A stretch of DNA of 62,200 nt, filler included. It is 5 parts of 5 records of this genome, joined end to end, with 100 filler letters (N's around TTAATTAATTAA, not from the genome) between each part and the next. Parts side by side here need not be neighbours in the genome. Positions count along the whole stretch, not along the records: positions 48,533 to 62,200 come from SRR7504441_7519; 4 more parts are not named here. One strand, 5' to 3'. Under the pieces are notes generated by a model. It saw nothing but the letters and a program-made list of their open reading frames with translations, did not search any database and was not told where the DNA came from. The first letter of the stretch is position 1. Every line of letters starts with the position of its first letter. This document shows positions 92 through 62,200 of the stretch, piece by piece. The translations under genes were made by a program, and so were the position numbers.

Positions 92-1171
92 TCAGCCCGG
101 GCCGGTATCTCGAACGGGTTCATCATCAGTCTGCTCGCTCTCACTACCCTCCGCCGCCACGTCAACGACCGGCTCACTCTCCTGCTCCTCCCCGCCAAAC
201 TCCACCCCGACATGGTACTCGCTCACCTTCACACAATGATCTAGGAACACCTGCTCGCTGTGCTTGTACTTCATAACATTGCAGTCCCCGCAGCATGAGA
301 CCACTGTTTCCACCGAGTACACCCGGTCGTCGCTGTCGAGCCGATCAAGTCCGTTATAATGCGGTTTGCTTGGTTCGGCCCGCTTCCCACAGTAGTGGCA
401 CGGCCGCCCTGTGATTTCCCGGAACTGCTCGTTTGTCAGAGCGTGTGTCTTAGTATGGGTCGAGCTCTGTGTGATGTAGCTCGATCGCGACCGCTTGCTC
501 ACGTTATCCCGAAACCGATCCGGATACCGGCCATAGTCTCCCGCGCACCGGTGCGTCGCGATCGTCCTGGCGGCCTCCACGAACCCAGCCACTGTACGCG
601 CGCCCTTCATCAGGTTGCACCGGGCGCAGGCCGTCGCCAAGTTGGCCTCCACGAACGGGCCCATGAATGCTTTCACTGCCGCCGCCCGGGATGCTTCCAT
701 CTCGGCCGGCCAAACCCGCAGCCTGGTGAGCCCGTTCCCGTTCTGGTCGGCCGGGGCACCGCACAACGTGCATGGACGCCGCATCAGCTCAGTGGCCCGG
801 TGATCGGACAGCCCGAACGGCACGTTCTGCTCCTTGGCCACTCGCTTGTACCCCTTGAGCCGGGTGAGGTGCGGCAGCGCGGTCAGGCTGGCTGGGCTGC
901 TCTTGGGCTTGGCCTGGGTCATCGGCCGCCTGCAGCGGGAGCACACCACCTCGGACCGGACGGCTGGCGCCTCCGACGGCCGGCCGGCCGCAGAACAGGC
1001 AGGCCTGAAGAAGCTGGACAGCGCGGACTGCCGGCTGGCGCTTGGGGCCCGCCTACAGCTGAAGCAGAGCACCTCCACCGTCCCGTCCGGCTGCTGCTGG
1101 GCCTGCCGGTACTTGCCGGCCGGCCTGGCTCGCTTCGCCGGCGTCTGGACGGCTCCCCGCCCCCGAGGCAT
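92..1171 (-). CDS. Tandem His-Me-finger (HNH-like) zinc-binding domain protein of the giant-virus/phage type, with a PIP box
   Basis: Two repeats of CxxC...NGL[T/D]R...CxxCNxMK (PCTLCG..NGLTRL..CARCNLMK; PCHYCG..NGLDRLDS..CCGDCNVMK). QSALSSFF at 1030-1007. First ATG at 1171. Confidence 0.7.
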   Translation of the reverse strand: MPRGRGAVQTPAKRARPAGKYRQAQQQPDGTVEVLCFSCRRAPSASRQSALSSFFRPACSAAGRPSEAPAVRSEVVCSRCRRPMTQAKPKSSPASLTALPHLTRLKGYKRVAKEQNVPFGLSDHRATELMRRPCTLCGAPADQNGNGLTRLRVWPAEMEASRAAAVKAFMGPFVEANLATACARCNLMKGARTVAGFVEAARTIATHRCAGDYGRYPDRFRDNVSKRSRSSYITQSSTHTKTHALTNEQFREITGRPCHYCGKRAEPSKPHYNGLDRLDSDDRVYSVETVVSCCGDCNVMKYKHSEQVFLDHCVKVSEYHVGVEFGGEEQESEPVVDVAAEGSESEQTDDEPVRDTGPG

Positions 1172-24275: not shown

Positions 24276-24375
24276 NNNNNNNNNNNNNNNNNNNNNNNNN
24301 NNNNNNNNNNNNNNNNNNNTTAATTAATTAANNNNNNNNNNNNNNNNNNNNNNNNNNNNNNNNNNNNNNNNNNNN
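24276..24375. other. Artificial contig linker (N44-TTAATTAATTAA-N44)
   Basis: Six-frame-stop spacer, identical to three others in the window. Confidence 0.98.
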
Positions 24376-30502: not shown

Positions 30503-30602
30503 NNNNNNNNNNNNNNNNNNNNNNNNNNNNNNNNNNNNNNNNNNNNTTAATTAATTAANNNNNNNNNNNNNNNNNNNNNNNNNNNNNNNNNNNNNNNNNN
30601 NN
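30503..30602. other. Artificial contig linker
   Basis: N44-TTAATTAATTAA-N44. Confidence 0.98.
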
Positions 30603-42601: not shown

Positions 42602-42701
42602 NNNNNNNNNNNNNNNNNNNNNNNNNNNNNNNNNNNNNNNNNNNNTTAATTAATTAANNNNNNNNNNNNNNNNNNNNNNNNNNNNNNNNNNNNNNNNNNN
42701 N
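42602..42701. other. Artificial contig linker
   Basis: N44-TTAATTAATTAA-N44. Confidence 0.98.
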
Positions 42702-48432: not shown

Positions 48433-48532
48433 NNNNNNNNNNNNNNNNNNNNNNNNNNNNNNNNNNNNNNNNNNNNTTAATTAATTAANNNNNNNNNNNN
48501 NNNNNNNNNNNNNNNNNNNNNNNNNNNNNNNN
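48433..48532. other. Artificial contig linker
   Basis: N44-TTAATTAATTAA-N44. Confidence 0.98.
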
Positions 48533-48748
48533 TGACACGCCAGTTGTGCTCTCTGTCCCCGCCTGTCGTTGAGTCAGAACTGGCGGGGAACCGAGCTCTA
48601 CCGTTGCTCCGGCGGGGACACGCAGAAAAGAAAAATACAGCTGGGAGCTGTCGACCTCATCGACAAGCAACGGCATCGTTGGGTGGCGCATCGCGAGGGC
48701 CTCATCGCGCGGGACAGTCAAGCGGATTAGTGTGCACAGTCGGGCGCG

Positions 48749-50723
48749 ATGCCTCTTGACATGGTGCGCCTTGCCGCCCCTACCCTGTGCAGGATCCAAG
48801 CCGCTTGTGCCTGCAGTCATACGAGTCTAGCGACGAGGAGGGCGCGCCCCCCAACCCAGGGGCCAAAGCCTCCTCTGGCAACAAAGCCCCGAACATGAAC
48901 GACACCGAGGCGTTCCCAGCGGCGTTGGGTACGGGGGCTGCTCCGCATGCGAGCCAGGTCCCGAACGGGGTCAACTTTGCTAGCCTGGCCGGCAAGTTCA
49001 CCCCGCCGCAGCAAGGTGCCGCCCGGTGCAGCCCCGCCGCTCAGCCCGCCGCAGAGGAGTTCGATCTAACTAAGCCGATCAAGATGGTGCGAAAGCCTAT
49101 CAGCAGAATATCCCGCGTGCGTGACATCTATAAGTCCCGCGACATCGTGAACGTGCCGCTGGCTCACGGCTGGGCGCTTTACACCGACAACGGCATGATA
49201 GGTACGGCGCTCCTTCCGCCCGCCCCCCGCGAGTTGTCGGCTGCCAACTGTGATTAGACCAGCAGCTCGCTAGCGGCCGCCTCCGTCGCTCAGCCAGTGA
49301 CCGGGTGTCGTGGTGCAGGCCCGGAGAAGCAAGCTGAGTGCGTCAGCAATAAGTGTGGGGAAGTGCAATGCATGCGCGAGTTCTTCCCGGTGTGGAACCG
49401 TAGTGAGCGCGCGGGCGCGGTGTCGAGTGGCTCGCACATCCGGCTCTTCAAGAGTGATGTGCACAGCTCGCCCAGTGTGCTCGACGGCATGCTCGAGAAG
49501 GTCCGCTGCCCATGTCGACAGCCGTGTGTGTGGCATCCGGCCGCAGTCCGCCCGTCTGATTGGCCTGCGCTGATCGGCTAGGGTCTGACTGGCGCTGCTC
49601 AGGGAGGCAAGTGGGCGATCCCAGTCTCTAAGCAGATCTCAAAGGACATGTTTGAAGAGCTCTCGCTGTACATACTGGACGAGCGCCTCGGCGACGCCGT
49701 CGTCGGTGCCTCCCCCCGCCCTCTGCCCGTGCGAGCTGCTGTCTGGCAGGCGGCGTGTACGCGATTCGCGAGCACGTGGACGTACTGCAGGTCTGGACAC
49801 GGACGGCTCCGAGCCCCGAGCACGTACAGCAGATGGCAGCTGAGATCATCGCAGTCCTGGGTGCGTCCAGCTTGAATGCTTGCATCCATCTCATTCGGGC
49901 CTGAGCTAATCGGATTTGGGCAGGGCTCGACGCCAGGTTTCCTGTCGAATTCCAGCTCCACGAGCACGCGTTTAAGAAAGCCAGCAAGGTAGGCCTGTTG
50001 AGTGTCCTGATGGTCTGATCGGTTGGGTGCAGGCCAGGAAGTATTTCTTAGTGGAGCCCACACCCCCGGGCCACCCAGTGGAGGCACAGGTGGCTGCCTC
50101 TAGGGCTCGGCTTGACCGGCCAGCTTCAGGCAAGTGCGCTCAAGCCAAGGTCTAAAAATGACACCACCTCTCAGAAGCCAGCGAAAAAGAAAGCGTCGGT
50201 GGGCGCAGCTGCTGTCGCGGCAGGAACTGACAGCTTGCTCAGGGCAAGAAGGCCGATGACTTCACTGAGGTGTCTGTTCGGAGTAAGCCCAAGCGGGGTG
50301 AGTGCCATGCCAGCAGCAGCATGGCCTGAGCTGCTCTGGTGCCAGGCAATGGAGAGCGTTCCGATGGGAATGAGCCTGGGGACGAGGGCACAGCTGGTGG
50401 GCCCTCGACATCCAATCCGTTTGGCAATCTGACAGTCGAGGCCGAAGAGCGGGAGGAGAAGGACGACAACCTTGTGTTTCACAAGCGGAAGGTAGCCTTT
50501 TCATCCTATCCCAAGCATTTAGTCCTGCGTTGCGCAGGTGAAGCCGAATTCACGCAAAGGCAGCAAGAAAGAAAAGAAGAAGGATGACTTCGAGGGTCTG
50601 CCACAGCAGCAAGGATCGATCGTTCCGTTCCCTGCGTTTCTCATTGTCGTGGCCGGCCTCGTTCTGCTTGTGGCCATCATGCTCTGGCAGTACACACAAG
50701 GCAGTCACTCGTCTGACAGCTAA
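48749..50723 (+). CDS. Divergent eIF4E-family protein with C-terminal transmembrane anchor (more than 10 tiny introns)
   Basis: Spliced read: VPLAHGWALY, EFFPVWN, IRLFKSDV..P, GGKWAI, FEELSL, AIREHVDVLQVWT, LGLDARFPVEFQLH; Lys-rich linker; FLIVVAGLVLLVAIMLW-QYTQGSHSSDS*. Confidence 0.75.
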
Positions 50724-51124
50724 GGGCTGGCGTTGCGGGCGTTCATCAGTCATGTGGCGTTGGACACAGTGTATCACATCCATGTCGACCATGACTGGCA
50801 CCAATGTGAACAAAAGCCTCTGAATGGGCTGGCTCGGGCGACTCGAATTTATTTAACCGTGTGCACAAAGGTCGGTGTTGATTTAGCTGGATAAATCTTG
50901 TGGGACCCTTTAATTTCTTTTATATTATAGTGTATGAAAACATATTAAGTGTAATGGGTTCCGCAAGAAGCACCAATGCACCTAATAATGGTAACTTCAT
51001 TCATGCAATTCTCACGCACCCGCTCAAGCCTGCGCTCAAGGTTCAGTTCCCACAAGTGCATCAGGGTCAGCACGCAGGTCTTCCACAATTGGAACAAAAC
51101 TCGACTTTCGAAGATCCGGGAGAC

Positions 51125-51585: not shown

Positions 51586-51597
51586 GTCTGATTGCAG

Positions 51598-53422
51598 GCC
51601 ACCAATTCGCAGCGGTTCTATCAGGGACACGATAACGACATTCTGTGCATGGCGATCAATCGAGCTGACGGTACCACAATTGCCACAGGACAGTGGACGG
51701 GCAACAAGTCTCAAGGGCAGACCTACGACCCCAAAATTATGGTCTGGAACTCAGAGAACTGTGAGACACTCTACGAGCTTACTGGGGAGCACCAGCGGGG
51801 TATCTCATGCCTGGCATTCTCGCCATCGGGCAATAAGCTGGTTTCTGTCGGAATGGACGACAACAATAGCGTTGTTATGTGGGACTGGAAGCGCCAGAAG
51901 GCGGTTGGCCCCGCAATGAAGGGCGGGCAGAACAAGCTGTTGATGGTCGCGTTTGATGGGAGCAATGACAATTCCTTCCTTACTGTTGGGGCCAAGACCA
52001 GCCAATTCTGGACTGCTTCGGCTGGTGGTAAGTTGTCAAAGAAGAGTGCAGCATTTGGCAAAAAGTTCAAGCAGCAAACTCAACTGGTGTGTGCTTCACA
52101 CAGGAACGGATTCCTGTCTGGAGCGTACCAGGGTCAGCTGTATGGTTGGACTGGCAATGGAGCCTCTTCCATGACACCTGCACACGATGGACCCATCTAT
52201 GCCATGTGCACATCAGGTGAGCTTGTTGTGACTGGGGGCAAAGATGGCAAGGTATCAGTCCGAGACATTTCGCTCAAGCCACTGGAGGAATTCAACTTGG
52301 GCCAGAACATCCGCTCTGTAGATGTGCACAACGACAGCATTCTTGTCGGCACATATGAGGGCAACATTTACGAAGTTGACATGAAATCAAAGAAGACCGA
52401 GGTGATCATGATGGGCCATGGTGGCATGGTTGAGCCAAACAACGCCTATGCGGGAGAGACCTGGGGGCTCGACGTGCACCCTGACGGCCACCACTATGCC
52501 ACAGTTGGCGATGATCGTGTTGTTCGAGTGTTCAACATTGAGTCACACCGGTGTGTTGGGAGCTTTGAAAATCTCGAACATCGCGCCCGCGCATGCTCGT
52601 GGCACAAGGATGGTGGCATGTTGGCCGTGGCTCTGAAGACTGGCACGATCGTGATTCTACAATGGAGCAGCGGGACTCTGTCGGAGCTCAAGTCATTTAA
52701 GAAGCGCGACTTCAAGAAGCTCAGCCAATTCCCGGAGCAGGGAGGGATTGATGCGATTCGATTCTCTCCAGATGGCTCAATGCTCGCCACTGGATCTCAC
52801 TCTGAAGGTATTGATGATGCCTTTACAATGCATAAACCTAGGGTGGGGGTCATTGTGACTCTGATTTAGTCTTGTTTGTGTCTCAGGTAAGGGGGGTTCT
52901 GGCGGGAAAGTTGATGTTTTCAGTACTGAAGGGTGGACCTTCCTTGGCGAATGCAAGGGCCACACCTCTTTTGTGCGCAACTTGGACTGGACTTCAGATT
53001 CTCAGCACATTAAATCAACAGATGCCAACCCTGAGTTGTTATTCTGGGACGCCAAGAACACTTCACAGCTGAAGAGCGGCGCATCTACCCTGAAGGACGC
53101 TGACTGGTACACCTTCTCTACTGAAGTTGGATGGCCAGTTCAAGGCGTCTATCGAAAGCTTCCAAACCACACAAAGCAGATGGATGGATCTGATGTCAAC
53201 ATGTGCGATGTGAACCCAGATAAGACGCTGCTTGTTGTCGGTGATGACTTCTCAAATGTCACCCTCTACAACTATCCTTGTACAAACAAGAAGGACGGCG
53301 CCTCATACTTTGGAGGACACTCTTCCTTTGTGATGAACGTCAAGTTTTCCAAAGATGGTAGCCGTGTGTTTTCTGTAGGCGGGCACGATCACACAGTGTG
53401 TCAATGGAAACTCATCAATTGA
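51598..53422 (+). CDS. EML/EMAP-like tandem WD40 (TAPE) protein lacking its HELP-motif N-terminus
   Basis: QRFYQGHDNDILCMAI, GETWGLDVHP, CKGHTSFVRNLDWT, GWPVQGVY, VGDDFSNVTLYNYPC, GHSSFVMNVKF, GGHDHTVCQW. Confidence 0.9.
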
Positions 53423-53824: not shown

Positions 53825-55782
53825 CTAGAGGATAAAGGCACAGCCATCAGCTCGCGGATCGGAACCTGCTAGCAAAATACGCTTGGGACCTGCAGCAGTT
53901 TGATGCACTTGCTGAACAATGATTTGGCCACGACCAAACAGGCTTCGGTCATAGCCAGTCACTGGCCCCTTCACTGTGTGGCCCTTGAGCCGGAGCTGCT
54001 CAATGACCTCATCCGAGATGCCTTCCTCGATGGCCACCTGCGACAGCTTCATAACTATGGACCAGCAGCCGCTTGGCACACCTGTGACTCTACGGCCTCG
54101 TTCATGACATGTGCCCCACCTCCCTGTGAGATGCAGAATCGAGGTGTGTCCAGCGCCTCTTGTGGGTCCATCCCAAAGTCGCGCATGTTCCGAATCACCT
54201 GCACTGCACTCAGCTGGCGCCCGGACCGGCGGCGGCCTGCAGGTGGCCTTGCGGCTGCATGAACCCGCCCATCACGCCAAACACCGAGTGCAGCTCGCCA
54301 CTCCCCGCCCAGGTGCTCAGTCCCGGGATGATGGTGTGGTAAGGCCGCTTTGCCCCGGCCACCGCGTTCGGGTGCCCAGGCTTGAGCGAGAAGTTATGGC
54401 CTGCCGCCGGCCTGAGCCGTGCCCGGGCGGCCAGTTTGCCTCGGTTCTGTAGCGTGAATCCTGCACCCTTTGGCACGATCCCAGTCCCAAACCCCATGTA
54501 GTTGGAGTTGATCATCGAGCACCCGTTCCCGTCTCGGTCTATCGCCACAAACTGAACCCACCGCTCAGCCCGGACTGCGCCCGATCACCTGGACGGTGTC
54601 GCAGCCACTCGGCGGCTGCCCAGCCACAACGTCGGCCTGAGCTGCCTCGGGCTGGATCTGGGCCTTGCGGGCGGCCAAGTACTCCGCCGACAGCAGCCCG
54701 GCCGTTGGCACGTCCACCAGCTGCTCGTCTGCTATGTATGCCCGTGCGTCCGCAAAGCTCAGCCGCATCGCTTCAACCAGCCCATGCAGATAGAGTGCAG
54801 AGTTGTGGCTCTCGCCCGGATACAGCCCTTCGGAGATCTTGAGCGCGAGCAAGGCGGCCAGCCCCTGGGTGGGCGGGGGCACCTCGTACACCCGCAGCTG
54901 GTTGTATTCGACGCTGATCGGCTCCCGGAACTCTGAGCTCCGGTGCGCCTCCAGGTCGGCCTCGGTGAGCACCCCGCCACTCTGCTGCACCACCTGCGCT
55001 ATGCCAGCCGCCAGCTCGCCGGTGTAGAACCCCTTGTGCGCCCCATCGGCAGCTACCCGCCGCATGGTGGCCGCCAGCCCCGGTCGGGTCATCACTTCGC
55101 CAGCGGCCGGGGCCCGCCACCCGCCTGCTCCACCCTCAGCCGGCCCCACGGACAGCGCACCCGGCGCGCTCGGGTCTTGCACCAGCAGCTCGGTGCCGTT
55201 GGCGGCCCCGGCCAGCAGCTGGGCGGCCTTCTCCCAGGCGTGCGCGGCCACCGGCTCCACCACGAACCCTTGCTCGGCCAGCTCGATCGCCGGGGCCAGC
55301 ACGTCGGCCAGGCTCAGCTTGCCCGACCCGTGCCGGCGCACCGCGTCCTCCCAAGCCATCGGGGCCCCAGGCACGGTCACGCACAGCGCCGACAGCGGGT
55401 CGAGCGGCGCGGCATCCACCCCGAATCCAGCCTGGGCCAACCGGTCGAGCGAGAGCCCGCTGGGGCTCCGGCCGTTCCCGAGCATCGCCTCGACCGCCCC
55501 GGTGTCCGCCTTGAAGAACAGCCCGAAGCAGTCGCCCCCAATCCCGGTGCTGCACGGCTCGGTCACGCCGAGCGCGGCAGCGATCGCCACTGCGGCGTCG
55601 GTCGCGTTGCCGCCGGCGGCCAAGATCTTGATCCCAGCCGCGGTCGCCGCCGGCTGGGAGGAGGCGCAGCCGCCGCCCGAGCCCATCACAGCTGAGCGGC
55701 GGCTGGAGAACGGCAGGCGCTTGGCAGCCCATCCCCCGCCCCGCGCGCCGCCTGACGGATCCTGTGTGAACGTGCGCTTCAT
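53825..55782 (-). CDS. Gamma-glutamyltransferase
   Basis: [29 protein letters not shown] (Thr nucleophile), [37 protein letters not shown]. Confidence 0.95.
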
Positions 55783-55929
55783 AGGTGCCGGACTGCCGGT
55801 GTGCCGTGCGTTCAGGGTTTGAGCTGGGTACCAGCCAAGCCAAGCCAGCCTTCTTGCGCGGGGGACGCCGGGGACTTCGGAGGGCATACTGCGTGTTCGC
55901 TCAGTCTTCTCGGAGCCGGTCCTTCGGCC

Positions 55930-56725
55930 ATGCGCTCCATGCTCGGGCTGCTCGGGCCGCTCGGGCTGATGGTCACCGCGGGCGCGGCGCGCATAAACCA
56001 GGACTTGATAATTAGGGGGACGCTGCCCGATACCCGCAATTGCGTCCAGGCGACTGATCCGCCGAACGCCCGACTTACCCTGACCCATTGCGTGCAGGCA
56101 CGACTCAGCCGAAGCATGTCAGCCGTCAGCTCTCCCTTCCACGGAGGGGCGTTCCTGTCTGCGATCCCGTTCTCGGCCGACAGGGTCTGCTTATCTGTAG
56201 CAGTCGAAGCTCCAGGGACCAAGCTTTCGTACTGCCCACGAGCTGCCCTGTGCATTGTACCATCGGTCTTTGCGAAGACTCCCCTGGTGCGATTGGATCT
56301 CCGCGTCTTCTTGCAAGTGCCAGACTGCACCAGACTCGCCGATGCTGAGCAGCTCGATTACGCAACAAGCTGCAGCTACGTGGCCTACTTATCTGCTGTC
56401 ATTTGTCTTCTTGTGGTGGCAGCTAAGTTCCGAAGCTCCAGGCCTGGCAGCAGGGAGCGTCAGCCTCGCATTTATAAGTGTCAGCATCACCGTGGCAGCA
56501 GCTCAAAGGGAAACCTTGGCTACAATCTAAGGAGCGACTGTCCAGAATGCGCAGCGGCGCTGATCAGCAGTGCTTGAATGGTGTGCATTGGCCCTCGAGG
56601 GAGCTAGCTATTACGCCAGTACTGTAGCTGACAAATCAACATGTACAGCTCCCGACCCGTCTTCAACGATCCCAGCAGAGCGTTTCTGCAATGGACCGAA
56701 TGGCCTGAATTTCACTTGGGTTTGA
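55930..56725 (+). CDS. Hypothetical signal-peptide, single-TM protein; 3' exon structure uncertain
   Basis: MRSMLGLLGPLGLMVTAGAA signal; TM YVAYLSAVICLLVVAA. Confidence 0.5.
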
Positions 56726-57144: not shown

Positions 57145-59076
57145 TTAGGAATGGGGCAAAAGGGCGATGGTTAGGCAGCATGACCTGTCCCGCCTCTGAT
57201 TGTACATCCAACCGGATCCGGCAGTGCTGCGCACAGGGGCGCGATAAAGATCGGTGTCCAGCAGCGAGACATCGAGCAAGGATGACGGATCGTCGGATTG
57301 CTCGAGCAGGGCAAATTGAGCCGACTTGCTGTTGTGGAACCCGTACAACATGTACGAGGCGACGGCAGCGCCAATCCAGCCAAGGATCAAGAGCAGGCCC
57401 GTGGTGCTCAGCTGCGCAAGCAGCGCCCAGTTGAAAAATATTGCGAGCCCAGGCAGCACGGGTACGTATGGGGCTCGGAACACCGTGCCTGGGGCCACAG
57501 ACTGGGGACACTTGCACCATATGGCGCCGAGCAGCCCAAACGCTATCGCAGTGCTGACTCCGGCGCAGGCAAGCATCACGACCTGCTGAGCTGACGAGCT
57601 AATTACCTGCTGCCACAAAAAGGCGGCGACTCCCTGCGAGATCGAATCAGCAGCAGCGGCTGGGGCTATAGGCACCGAGCAGGCTACAAACGGCCACATG
57701 AGCGCTGGAAAGAGGCCGGGTGAGAGCTCGTGGTAGCGGAGCATGAGCAAGCAGCAGTTGCACAACGAGAACGAGACCAACACGCCGGCCGACACCATAT
57801 CGTCCAGGTGATTGAACGGCACGCAGAGCGCAACGGCCGTGAGCACCACCCCAGAGATCAGAGTGCCAAAGAAGATGTTGCCGTGCTGGTCCAGCCAGCC
57901 GAGCACCTGCGGCGCGAGCCCGTCGTTGGCCATCGCAAACAGCAAGCGCGGCTGAGCCAGGAACGCGATGAAAACCACAATCGGCAGCGTCAACACCTCA
58001 CCAGCTTGCGCAATGTGAGCCACTGCCGACCACCCGAGATGCCGGAAGCCCGAGGCAAACCCGGCGTCCGAGTCGATTTGGGTGTAACTCAGCATGCCAA
58101 CCAGCCCGAGCGAGGCCACGATTGAGAGCACCTGGACCCCGTGAGCCCCGGCCCGAGCCGTGCGCACCGCGGTGCCGGCGATGGTGCCGACCACGGCCCG
58201 GGGCATCACCTTGGTCGGGTTCTTGGCCTCGCCCGCCATGCAGCACACCTTGAGCTCCGGGTCAGCTCAGTTGCAGCTCAAGCACCTCGTCAAAACCGAT
58301 GAAACCGAAGAACGCGGCCGTCCCGCCCTTGAGCACCCCGCCCGCCCCCAGCTCGGGCGGCACGAAAGGCTTCAAGTTCTGAGCGTCGAAGGCCGTGAGC
58401 GCGGCGACCGTCATGAACACAATCAGCACGATCTTCGCTACGGTCATCACATTCACCAGGTGCTTCCCTAGAGAAAGCCCACACATGAGCAGCCCCACGC
58501 AGAGCGCCTGCAGCCCGGCCGCGGTGAGCGACCAGTGCTCTTGGTCGAGCCAGTCGGCGGCGTTCGGGTCGTGCCGGATATCCTGGATCCAGTAGACGAG
58601 CTTGGTCCCCCAGGCCCGGGCCACCGCCGCCCCGCTCACACCGTACTCGAGAGTCAGGCACCAGGCCGCCACCACCGCGAACACCTCGCCCAGCGCGTGG
58701 TAGCTGTAGGCGTACACGCTCCCCGAGGACGGCACCACCGACGAGAGCTCCATGTACGCGAAGCCGTTCACTGTGCAGCCCACCGCCGCCACCGCCCACG
58801 AGAGCATGACCGCCGGGCCCGCGTACTCGTGCGCGATCAGACCGGCCAGCGCGAACACGCCAGTGCCCACCGTGCCCCCGATCCCGATCATGAGGAGATC
58901 GAACAGCCCGAGCTGCCGAGTGAGTCCGACCGACGATCCGGCCAGCTCCTCGTCCTCCTCGAGCAGGATGTACTCGCGCTGCACAACCGGCTCAGCCAGC
59001 TCCTCTGAGCGCGTACCGGCTTGCGCGACAGCATCCGCTGCACCATAGACCTCTTGGCCGGGACCTCGTCGCACAT
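57145..59076 (-). CDS. Cationic amino-acid transporter (APC/SLC7 CAT type)
   Basis: LSRKP, IGIGGTVGTGVF, AGPAV, ELSSVVPSSGSVY, FFGFIGFDE/VCCMAGEAKNP, QPRLLFAMANDGL, FRAPYVP. Confidence 0.93.
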
Positions 59077-59158
59077 TATCACGCCGGGACCACCGTCCGG
59101 CGTCGAGCAGTACAAGTAACGGATTTTTGCCGTCTGCACCTCAGTCCGGACTCAGCTC

Positions 59159-59953: not shown

Positions 59954-61780
59954 TTAAGACTCTAACTTGAGCAAATCTATAGTCGATCCTAGCTTGATTC
60001 CGCATTCTTTCAGACCCTCAGCCGCTGATTGATCGGCTAGTATCGTGATGCGCGGGTGCACGCGCACGAGGTGCAGAGTGCTCTTGCTGGAGGCTACTGC
60101 GCCTAGTACGCATTGCCTGGCCACGCCGCTGTCCGGCCGGCCGCTGAACACTAGCACCAGCTGGCTGCTTTCCATGAGAGTCCCAAACCCAACAGTCACC
60201 GTCCCTTCCACCCGAGCAGTCCTGGATACCAGCTGTGCGTCCGGTAGATTCTGCGCCAGATGCCCGTGCCGGCCGACGGTGCCCACTGCCAGCTGGATCC
60301 CCCCGAGTGCTGCGATCATCCGTTCAAACTCGACGGGGTCCGCCGCCCAGCCGACTCGACCCCCGACCGCCGCCTCCAGCCCCAACGGATCCGCCGGCAC
60401 GCTGTCGGCCACAAACACCACCGGCAGATCTCGGACCGCCGCCGCAAACTCGGCCAGCCAACCCCTCCAGCGCTGGGCCGCCGGCACCAGCACCACACAC
60501 TGCGCACGCTCATCCAGCTCGCACTCGATCAGCTGGCGCAGCTTCTGGCAGCCCTGTCGGGCGAGCTGGCACACGCACAGCCAGGCCTGCCGGTGGAAGT
60601 CAGCTTTGATCTTGCGCCAGTACTCCTGCTCGACCAGCCAGCTCCTCTGCTCGAGCATCCGGTAAAAGTATTCCAGCTCAGACCGGCCGGGCAGCCCGTG
60701 CTCGTACACCAGAGTCTGCCCAGCAGCCAGCGCCAGCCGGGCCTCCAGGCCGGGCCGCCCGTGGCCCCGAATCAGCCGCGGCTCGAAGCCCGGCGCTCCA
60801 AGCACGAACGCGAACGAAACCCTCGCGGCGCTCCCCGGCCCGGCGCAGCTGCCCCAGTGCAGCAGCCGGTGCGTGAACAGGATGGCCTCCCCGGGAGCCG
60901 CCGGCACCGCCCGGATGTGCTGCATGGCCGCGTCGTCCTCCCCGAGGGCTCTCCGGACAGCCCCGCCCGTGCCGCCGGGCTGGGGCCCCAGGTACTCAGG
61001 ATCGGCCGGCCTGGGCAGCACGTACAGGCAAGACCCGCTGGCCGGTGCCTCGGTGCACGGCAGCCAACAAGTCACCGCCTGCCCCCGACTGGTCAGCCCA
61101 GCCCCGGGATGCCAGCGCCTTGGCGCCCGTGCCCCCTTCGCCCCGGAACGATGAGCCCACGTCGGCCAGCGCATCTCGATCCCGGTGCGGCCCAAACCCA
61201 AGAGCTGCCCCCCAGGTGACCGCAGCCAGTCAGCCAGCCACCTTGCGCTTCGATCCGCCACGCGAACAGCTCGGTGGTCGGCTGGTTGCCTGTGATCGCA
61301 GCCAGCGCTGGGCTGAGCTGCTCGATCAGCTGCCCCAGGCCTCAGCCCGCCCCGGCCGGCACGAGCCTGCCACAGCTCGTCGTACACAGCCAGGAACACT
61401 GGCGGCCAGCCATTTCGCCCGAGCACCTCCGCGGCGGCCGCCAGCTTGCGCAGCAGCCTAGGCTCGGGCAGTGCGGCCAGCTGGCAGTAGCCCTCTGCGT
61501 CCAGCGCTGCGGCGGCGGCCCGCACAGTCTGAGCTGACACACCAGCGCCCGGGCAGGCCGGCCGACGAGACACGTGCAGAGCCGGGCACAACCGCCGCCA
61601 GTAGCCCGGGTCGCTGGCCTGCTCGGGCGCCGGGCGCGGGGGCGCCGACGGCAAGGGCCGGGCGGGCGGACCACGGGGCTTGAGCCGGACCACCCGGGCC
61701 CGGCGAGGCCTCTTGGTCGCCAGCATGGCCGCCAGACGCCGCTCGAGCCTGGTCGAGCCACGTGCGCGCTTGTGTCGCAT
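59954..61780 (-). CDS. PhyH-like 2OG-Fe(II) dioxygenase fused to a degenerate glucosamine-6-phosphate-deaminase (NagB-like) domain
   Basis: After removing three tiny introns: FAWRI..FGPHRD..TCWLP..GSCLYVLP..PGEAILFTHRLLHWG. C-terminal GGIQLAVGTVGRHGHLAQNLP, TVGFGTLM, HPRITILADQSAA. Confidence 0.8.
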   Translation of the reverse strand: MRHKRARGSTRLERRLAAMLATKRPRRARVVRLKPRGPPARPLPSAPPRPAPEQASDPGYWRRLCPALHVSRRPACPGAGVSAQTVRAAAAALDAEGYCQLAALPEPRLLRKLAAAAEVLGRNGWPPVFLAVYDELWQARAGRGGLRPGAADRAAQPSAGCDHRQPADHRAVRVADRSARWLADWLRSPGGQLLGLGRTGIEMRWPTWAHRSGAKGARAPRRWHPGAGLTSRGQAVTCWLPCTEAPASGSCLYVLPRPADPEYLGPQPGGTGGAVRRALGEDDAAMQHIRAVPAAPGEAILFTHRLLHWGSCAGPGSAARVSFAFVLGAPGFEPRLIRGHGRPGLEARLALAAGQTLVYEHGLPGRSELEYFYRMLEQRSWLVEQEYWRKIKADFHRQAWLCVCQLARQGCQKLRQLIECELDERAQCVVLVPAAQRWRGWLAEFAAAVRDLPVVFVADSVPADPLGLEAAVGGRVGWAADPVEFERMIAALGGIQLAVGTVGRHGHLAQNLPDAQLVSRTARVEGTVTVGFGTLMESSQLVLVFSGRPDSGVARQCVLGAVASSKSTLHLVRVHPRITILADQSAAEGLKECGIKLGSTIDLLKLES

Positions 61781-62200
61781 GGCAGTCACTCCAGAAGCAG
61801 TGCCTTTCAGTTGCGGATTGCGTTCACGGCATCTCGCAACCCGCTTCATCACCAACAAGGTGTGCCTCCCGCCTCGCCCCCGTGTCGGCTCGGAGAGTGG
61901 CCAGCGCCTGTCACTAGCTAGACGCGTGCCCCGCCCTCTCCTAGACTGCTCCCCTCGTCCCCCGGACCTCCCGCTTGTGCCCATCCACCCGGCCAGCATC
62001 CCCCTCCCGCTAGTCCACCATCCCTGCCCCCTGCGGATCCACAGCCTTGAACCCGCGTGCATCGCTGCTCCGCGTTGTTCGCAACACCCATCCATCCTCG
62101 ATCACACTCATGCCTATGCTGCGTGGTGGTCTTGATGGAGCGTGGTCTGTGCAGCCATGGTCTTCGCACACACCAAGCTCACCGCCACCACCACCAAGCT

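Follow-up and report, generated by a model that had tools for sequence, protein, structure and literature searches.

Can an eIF4E-type protein be fixed to a membrane, and what would it do there? eIF4E is regarded as soluble, and it is not settled how mRNAs and ribosomes reach membranes by routes other than that of the signal peptide. Both points are raised by a gene at positions 48749-50723 (+) of the window, by which we mean the whole 62,200-nt stretch of DNA analysed here. An earlier note on this DNA, made from the sequence alone, had read the locus as a tail-anchored eIF4E homologue that lacks canonical cap-binding residues, and had proposed a membrane-tethered translation regulator or an mRNA/ribosome receptor. 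We find an expressed gene of 12 exons, whose 444-aa product begins with a disordered N-terminus and continues with a divergent domain of eIF4E fold, a flexible linker of about 130 aa that is rich in Lys and a single C-terminal transmembrane (TM) helix. As to its role, we tentatively favour, at somewhat less than an even chance, a membrane tether or regulator that docks ribosomes or messenger ribonucleoproteins (mRNPs) and is not a cap-binding initiation factor.

The gene is expressed and belongs to a conserved family

The start ATG (48749) and the stop TAA (50721-50723) are where the earlier note had placed them, and an in-frame TAG (48728-48730) lies 18 nt upstream of the ATG. From the DNA, using stop-to-stop frames and GT..AG borders, an uninterrupted chain of 11 exons encoding 457 aa was derived. 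Twenty public runs, 16 of them RNA, hold part of the stretch, and RNA contigs from four metatranscriptome runs of three studies were compared with positions 48533-51000; coverage gaps in the runs of contigs X5 and X6 carry no evidential weight. All 11 GT..AG introns were seen spliced in these contigs. Ten of them had been derived from the DNA, across which the exons are in phase, as had been claimed; the eleventh, a 39-nt in-frame GT..AG intron at 49016-49054 (+), was missed in our rebuilt 11-exon model and was found from the RNA, being removed in both contigs that cross it (X1 and X5). It is likewise missing from P0001, a protein database entry of RNA-assembly origin that equals the spliced 444-aa product except for one S/T difference. 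Contig X1 (1580 nt) crosses all introns, carries the IF4E and TM exons in one RNA and reaches 50910, where its poly(A) tail follows, 23 A residues that are absent from the DNA. Contig X2 (975 nt), from a second run of the same study, runs from the exon encoding PSVLD to the 3′ untranslated region (UTR) and includes the TM exon, and contig X5 (575 nt), from another study, bridges the last four exons, including that of the TM helix. The three contigs link the IF4E exons to the TM exon in a single transcript, a point on which the earlier note had made its reading depend.

To find relatives, we scanned 1.84 billion representative sequences with HMMER, which gave 211 proteins at E <= 1e-3, nine of them at E <= 1e-30, and further proteins came from a profile search. 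The whole architecture is shared by 20 full-length relatives (33-55% identity), all of which match Pfam IF4E. Their common features run from end to end: in the N-terminus, the start MP(L/V)DMSYES, an acidic Ser patch, NKAPSLxDxEAFPETxG and NFAxLA; in the core, an IF4E domain with SPSxxD and an invariant FEEL..Y helix, followed by ARKYFLVE; and in the linker and tail, NPF/NPY, KGSKKEKK, D(D/E)FxxLP and one C-terminal helix. Almost all members come from marine metatranscriptomes. The only named source is Telonema subtile (EukProt, P0193, 432 aa, 51% identity), and the organism of the window is probably a telonemid or a relative, judging by this match. The family member P0194 (JGI) is labelled 'ribosomal protein L37AE/L43A', and one of the 20 members has a marginal Ribosomal_L37ae match (E 0.0098); the label is probably an annotation accident.

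Could the gene nevertheless be an artefact, through chimeric assembly or wrongly joined exons, or else a pseudogene in decay? It begins 216 nt from the start of its contig, which opens at 48533, in a window stitched from short contigs, and its RNA support comes from assembled contigs, not from single molecules or single long reads. Against this, the TM exon is reached by three RNA contigs of two studies, no stop interrupts the frame along the 12 exons, motifs are conserved over the whole length, and the architecture recurs in the 20 full-length relatives, including that of the T. subtile culture transcriptome. A chimera is very unlikely, because the open frame is continuous over eleven junctions in three contigs, and we regard an artefact of any of these kinds as effectively refuted.

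A predicted eIF4E fold without the canonical cap-binding residues

The whole protein matched Pfam IF4E (PF01652) well above the gathering score (65.2 bits, where 28.7 are required; E 7.8e-18), along positions 1-153 of the 158-position profile. The match covers aa 106-257, spanning 49156-49937 (+) with introns included, and this HMMER check bears out the family assignment that the earlier note had drawn from motif order. Taken alone, exons 3, 4 and 5 in the numbering of the 11-exon model matched IF4E collinearly (profile 25-63, 74-104 and 114-147), each weakly (E 0.06, 0.14 and 0.012, respectively), and exons 2 and 6 of that model, searched alone against Pfam, gave no match. Among PDB sequences, phmmer found its best match in 4EHP (5nvk_A, 7.3e-10) and, in all, 29 distinct chains of the eIF4E family at E <= 0.01. 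Structure prediction, which the earlier note had suggested, pointed the same way. An AlphaFold2 (AF2) model was built from an alignment of 20 family sequences. Its core (about aa 90-270) reached predicted local distance difference test (pLDDT) values of mostly 80-91, with 58-78 in three loop blocks, and has strands and three long helices in eIF4E order, the 'cupped hand' fold; residues 1-87 and 295-413 were largely at pLDDT <50. Foldseek gave 183 PDB matches at E <= 1e-3, all eIF4E or 4EHP among the matches listed, headed by 5nvk_C of the 4EHP-GIGYF1 complex (E 5.5e-13, TMt 0.81). The ESM Atlas returned for the whole protein generic IF4E clusters only, with scores of 0.76-0.79, below the meaningful level. 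In its predicted structure, then, the window protein has an eIF4E fold, closest to that of 4EHP.

4EHP (eIF4E2, class II) resembles P0001 in fold, in motif order and in the R157, W166 and W113 equivalents. It keeps Tyr at W56, as well as W102 and E103, and binds the cap, whereas P0001 has Ala, Val and Leu at these positions. 4EHP is also soluble, and P0001, unlike it, continues into a 130-aa linker and a C-terminal membrane helix.

Residue equivalences were taken from HMMER alignments to 4EHP and Drosophila eIF4E. Human eIF4E numbering and the roles of W56, W102 and W166 follow PMC1260017, and the roles of E103 and K162 and the dorsal S/TVxxFW motif with W73 follow PMC4330643. In exon 4 (49319-49500, +) the PMWED motif reads PSVLD (49471-49485), with V174 and L175 in place of W102 and E103, and F143 replaces W73, all as the earlier note had seen. 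It had also rightly listed the residues that are kept: W43 (W111, in exon 3, 49055-49201, +, which encodes a basic pre-core helix and the first IF4E core strand), W113 (W185, next to K184 in the GGKW motif of exon 5, 49603-49705, +), the phosphate contact R157 (R222) and the N7-methyl contact W166 (W231), the last two in exon 6 (49750-49860, +). Its account of the cap residues was correct for W102 and E103 but incomplete, as W56 is replaced by A126 (49333-49335), in a loop with no aromatic residue whatsoever, and K162 by V227 of exon 6. With W56 lost as well as W102, the whole sandwich for 7-methylguanosine (m7G) is gone. Because all three residues of the m7G clamp have been replaced (W56 by Ala, W102 by Val and E103 by Leu), the domain of P0001 is predicted to be unable to hold the cap in the canonical way.

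These losses characterise the family. We tabulated 165 IF4E domains, each covering at least 80% of the local model; 56 rows with a near-complete domain, many of them near-identical, belong to the family. An aromatic residue at W56 and Trp at W102 were found in none of the 56, and Glu at E103 in one, compared with 94, 94 and 95, respectively, of the 95 rows of IF4E proteins without a C-terminal hydrophobic segment. In the family, position 174 is V, P, A, M or H and position 175 is L, D, S or E, a variability to be expected of an unconstrained former ligand site. On the dorsal side P0001 reads CMREFF and departs from S/TVxxFW, and the W73 position is occupied by F in 38 family rows, E in 9, D in 4, R in 3 and N in 2.

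Part of the pocket is conserved: R222 (R157) is found in 56/56 rows, K184 (R112), D176 (D104) and W231 (W166) in 53/56 each, P172 is invariant and S173 nearly so, SPS replacing PMW. All this would suit a remodelled pocket: at a membrane and without the Trp sandwich, the protein would recognise either a different kind of 5′ structure or a ligand that carries phosphate. In eIF4E3, a single Trp suffices for cap binding. Such a pocket seems quite unlikely, however. Both stacking positions and the Glu are gone together, the variation of 174 and 175 among members argues against a specific replacement contact, and the retained residues may be structural.

The Joshi classes of eIF4E-family members carry at W43/W56 the residues W/W (class I), Y, F or L/Y or F (class II) and W/C or Y (class III) (PMC1260017), and the combination of W111 and A126 matches none of the three. 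Dinoflagellate eIF4E-3b resembles P0001 in its substituted W102 (W to R; PMC4330643), but it and other eIF4Es with divergent cap residues keep E103, whereas P0001 loses the whole sandwich together with the Glu and adds an anchor. We assume these divergent eIF4Es to be soluble, and the term 'membrane' is absent from PMC4330643.

A predicted C-terminal anchor on a spacer of conserved length

Exon 12 (50538-50723, +) encodes the KGSKKEKK and DDFEGLP motifs, the hydrophobic segment FPAFLIVVAGLVLLVAIMLW (aa 414-433, 50628-50687), an 11-aa tail and the stop. The 19-residue window 414-432 has a Kyte-Doolittle (KD) hydropathy of 2.93, compared with 1.19 for the next best 19-residue window starting before residue 380, and the AF2 model has a helix at 414-438. 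After FPAFLIVVAGLVLLVAIMLW there are 11 polar residues with no basic charge, and the Lys-rich linker leading to a hydrophobic helix 11 aa from the stop is as the earlier note had described it. A single C-terminal hydrophobic helix with no other such segment, as seen here in hydropathy windows, is the anatomy of a tail anchor. Judged by this anatomy, P0001 would be tail-anchored, most of it lying in the cytosol, and targeting to the endoplasmic reticulum (ER) is most likely, given the high hydrophobicity and the uncharged tail. Two matches of the TM exon, to DUF4519 and PGPGW, were sub-threshold and were disregarded.

The anchor is a property of the family. In all 20 full-length members the C-terminal window reaches KD 1.99-2.93, the second-best window does not exceed 1.39, and the tails after the helix are at most 12 aa long and nearly uncharged. 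The helix is found in 52/56 family rows, the others being the shorter entries P0154, P0163 and P0178 and the short isoform P0189. The linker (aa 284-413, 130 aa) contains 20 K and 7 R against 21 D+E, with an isoelectric point of 9.5, and its length stays at 130-147 aa in 20/20 members despite low sequence conservation. It begins in exon 8 (50033-50089, +), after ARKYFLVE, the last conserved segment before it, continues through the Lys-rich exon 9 (50130-50198, +) and exon 10 (50243-50297, +), and carries the conserved NPFG and LVFxK(R/K)K motifs in exon 11 (50346-50491, +).

An NPF/NPY-like tripeptide, N[PIN][F/Y], occurs in the linker of 18/20 members, and NPF motifs bind EH domains. Together with the acidic Ser clusters and the D(D/E)FxxLP motif adjoining the membrane, this tripeptide would fit an adaptor for membrane trafficking or organelles that acts outside translation, in which the IF4E fold serves as a generic interaction module and the linker motifs recruit trafficking proteins. 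We consider it very unlikely: such short motifs arise easily in disordered Lys/Asp-rich sequence, and the one motif for which an outside match exists suggests the ribosome instead (see below). The topology also resembles that of LRRC59 and p180/RRBP1, ER receptors for ribosomes or mRNA that combine one membrane helix, a Lys-rich flexible region beside it and an interaction domain in the cytosol, an arrangement suited to holding ribosomes or mRNA at a membrane. Neither is known to be related to P0001 in sequence or fold, and their interaction domains are not eIF4E folds.

Other tail-anchored eIF4Es keep the cap residues

The search for IF4E domains with a C-terminal TM helix in other organisms, which the earlier note had recommended, returned, besides the 20 full-length relatives, a second set of protist proteins. 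Eight non-family proteins among the distant matches also end in a hydrophobic helix, and a profile search with these eight added nine more, eight of them with a C-terminal hydrophobic helix (set P0024, P0030, P0032, P0048, P0055, P0072, P0090, P0135 and P0218-P0225). They include cap-keeping proteins from Amoebozoa (Paramoeba atlantica, Sappinia pedata, Stenamoeba stenopodia and Mastigella eilhardi), Heterolobosea (Pharyngomonas kirbyi, Naegleria fowleri and Naegleria lovaniensis) and a ciliate (Muranothrix gubernata). Like the window family, the cap-keeping proteins have an IF4E domain, a long disordered linker and a C-terminal hydrophobic helix, but they differ from it by reading P-x-W-E-D: among their 14 rows, Y/F stands at W56 in all 14, W at W102 in 12 and Y in two, E103 is kept in 13 and W73 in all 14. 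The Naegleria proteins reach only a low KD of 1.87 in their hydrophobic window.

The earlier note knew of no characterised membrane-anchored eIF4E. No paper describing a transmembrane or tail-anchored eIF4E was found among the literature matches listed, in a search that left subscription journals mostly outside and is not proof of absence; the term 'transmembrane' is absent from two surveys of protist eIF4Es and one of eukaryotic mRNA metabolism, and explicit phrases for a membrane-anchored eIF4E had 0 occurrences. Within this search the statement of the earlier note holds, but the window family is not the only anchored IF4E, and the cap-keeping tail-anchored set is apparently undescribed. Its members would be the first membrane-anchored cap-binding proteins, and they include culturable amoebae and Naegleria. 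If they are what they seem, the cap-competent members (Naegleria, Amoebozoa and the ciliate) would put cap-dependent mRNA recruitment directly on a membrane.

For trees, 156 domains were thinned at 80% identity to 105 rows. In a quick tree of these rows the family (support 99) stands beside the cap-keeping anchored set, and a branch with a Shimodaira-Hasegawa-like approximate likelihood ratio (SH-aLRT) support of 93 parts both from 83 other IF4Es. The grouping of P0031 with the family in this tree had an SH-aLRT of only 77 and may be a long-branch artefact; it was not relied on. A more careful tree of 54 rows comprised 12 family members, 12 other tail-anchored proteins, four close unanchored relatives and 26 others (every third remaining row), leaving out seven long-branch rows, P0186 and P0189; its bootstrap had not fully settled. 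Here the family is held together with 100/100 support on a very long stem, and all 26 unanchored IF4Es fall on one side of a 99/99 branch, with the anchored set on the side of the window family. If the root lies among ordinary eIF4Es, the anchor would have a single origin and the window family would be a derived offshoot that lost the cap residues later, the long stem being a caution. P0031 and P0135 read PSWEH for PMWED, have a family-like HxKKAxKxxKxF after the core and lack LIGEQF, and the fragment P0135 is tail-anchored; the two may occupy an intermediate place, with the cap-competent anchored set on one side and the window family on the other.

A SERBP1-like N-terminal motif and the proposed function

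Exon 2 (48817-49015, +) encodes the acidic, Ser-rich N-terminus, the motif NKAPNMNDTEAFPAALG (aa 27-43, 48880-48930, +) and the NFASLA motif. The earlier note had likened EAFPAALG in this region to the short FPAL motifs of ribosome-associated RNA-binding proteins. Written as NKAPxΦxDxEAFPxxΦG, the motif is the most conserved N-terminal element of the family: F38 and P39 are invariant in 20/20 members, and P30, D34, A37 and G43 are at least 90% conserved. It occurs in 52 of the 239 proteins fetched, all 52 recognised as family members or their fragments. The AF2 model has pLDDT <50 over residues 36-59, that is, over most of the motif, and an ESM Atlas search with the N-terminal 99 aa gave no usable match.

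Among 177,635 PDB sequences, phmmer with aa 25-65 found one match, 9pbe_CD, the C-terminus of human SERBP1 isoform 2 (E 1.5), the matched part being residues 35-48 of the 50-aa SERBP1 chain in 9PBE. When a profile of 13 family N-termini was used, 9pbe_CD was again at the top (E 0.078), followed by a match at E 8.7. The segments NKAPNMNDTEAFPA of P0001 and NKAPDVDDPEAFPA of SERBP1 are identical at 11/14 positions, and P30, M32, F38 and P39 are spaced as P396, V398, F404 and P405 of SERBP1, the distances P30-F38 and P396-F404 both being eight residues; M32, which aligns with V398, is L, F or V in the relatives. [quoted passage not shown] The FPxL motif, common to the ZAK RIM, the SERBP1 C-terminus (393-408) and LARP4, binds RACK1 blades 2-3, with F404 and L407 of SERBP1 contacting RACK1 and P396 and V398 giving further contacts (PMC12823453). 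The motif lies within a disordered terminus in both proteins, but it is N-terminal in P0001 and C-terminal in SERBP1, and the rest of P0001 is unrelated to SERBP1. The resemblance is suggestive only. In the terms of the earlier note, its motif proved to be the most conserved part of the N-terminus, with the RACK1-binding end of SERBP1 as its best PDB match, but the FPxL core itself is not there. A literature search for FPAL-type motif strings returned unrelated papers only.

How might the parts act together? In the reading that we favour, the C-terminal helix would insert post-translationally, probably into the ER, leaving the remainder of the protein on the cytosolic face, and the domain would reach out on its spacer of conserved length. 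The SERBP1-like N-terminal motif would then hold ribosomes by RACK1 on the head of the 40S subunit. Close to where the mRNA leaves the 40S, a partner protein or RNA would be bound by the pseudo-eIF4E domain, with its invariant FEEL..Y helix alpha-2, together with the basic linker.

Several observations weigh against this. The SERBP1 match is short (14 residues) and its E-value of 0.078 is not significant. The family reads FPxx[L/F/W] (FPAAL, FPETL, FPETF, FPAQW) and not FPxL, so that the hydrophobic residue expected in the RACK1 pocket is shifted by one position. The W73 position is unconserved, which makes canonical 4E-BP or eIF4G-type partners doubtful, and the conserved R222, K184, D176 and W231 could point to the remodelled ligand pocket considered above. 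Finally, the cap-keeping anchored relatives are mostly without the EAFP motif, so that ribosome docking, if real, would be specific to the window family.

An alternative is a membrane-bound scaffold for eIF4E-partner proteins or mRNPs that does not dock ribosomes. Its domain would retain a surface for binding proteins and sequester or localise a 4E-BP, 4E-T or GIGYF-like partner, and the EAFP motif would bind a target other than RACK1. The best matches in both sequence and structure are to 4EHP, a repressor that works via bound partners; residues F198, E199, E200, L201 and Y204 of helix alpha-2 (the FEEL..Y helix, aa 198-204, exon 5) are invariant in 20/20 members; and the FPxxΦ spacing is unlike FPxL (PMC12823453). 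The W73 position, a key one for canonical partner binding (PMC4330643), is, however, F/E/D/R/N in the family, and the similarity that extends along the stretch of SERBP1 bound to RACK1 would stay unexplained, so that on balance we think such a scaffold unlikely.

If the docking reading is true, a conserved and expressed eIF4E fold that is fixed to a membrane, no longer binds the cap and bears a putative motif for RACK1 docking would offer a new and directly testable mechanism for translation control at membranes or for ribosome storage, and ribosomes held by the head of the small subunit would represent a membrane route that does not use the contact between the 60S subunit and the translocon. 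Combined with the trees, that reading extends to a fuller proposal: the window gene would be a derived tip of an old, unrecognised tail-anchored eIF4E branch spread over many protist lineages, in which the Telonema-type proteins lost the cap pocket, gained a SERBP1-like RACK1-binding motif and became membrane receptors for the 40S subunit or the 80S ribosome. We put this forward as a possibility only, being doubtful of it as a whole. Even if the function is mundane, the family offers a clean case from nature in which an eIF4E fold found new use once its ligand site was lost.

Further features of the transcript and the locus

The 5′ UTR extends at least over 48709-48748 (+): an X6 contig (record 7) has its first base at 48709 and lacks intron 1. 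Exon 1 (48749-48763, +) encodes aa 1-5 (MPLDM), part of the MP(L/V)DMSYES start of the family, and is joined at 48763/48817 across a GT..AG intron. Exon 7 (49924-49988, +) carries the last core strand and helix (..HEHAFKKASK), and the 3′ UTR with the poly(A) site of contig X1 covers 50724-50910 (+).

The 11 introns (window 48764-50537) are all GT..AG and very short (39-117 nt), seven of them being 39-48 nt long. Retention of the 39-nt in-frame intron would leave the reading frame intact. In T. subtile a short isoform (P0189, 279 aa) is identical to the 432-aa P0193 for 271 aa and then ends after 8 aa and a stop. The point at which the two diverge is the position of the window intron 49989-50032 (44 nt, between coding exons 7 and 8). 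If that intron were retained, translation would stop after 9 further residues (VGLLSVLMV), and the product would be soluble, having neither linker nor anchor; no form retaining this intron was seen in the RNA contigs compared. RNA and DNA differ by C>G at 49410, T>C at 49653, C>T at 50801 and an 11-nt insertion after 50879 in the 3′ UTR, which looks like strain variation among environmental populations.

The window consists of five contig parts of about 6-24 kb each, joined by four N44-TTAATTAATTAA-N44 linkers (24276-24375, 30503-30602, 42602-42701 and 48433-48532). It resembles a binned environmental eukaryote assembly, and genes across a linker are not neighbours; the ABC-transporter open reading frame upstream of the gene sits on a different contig. 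On the same contig lie an EML-type tandem (double) beta-propeller gene (51592-53422, +), a gamma-glutamyltranspeptidase gene (54565-56118, -), an amino-acid permease gene (57145-59140, -) and a 715-aa open frame without a Pfam match (59954-62101, -); the first three have no evident connection to the eIF4E-like gene.

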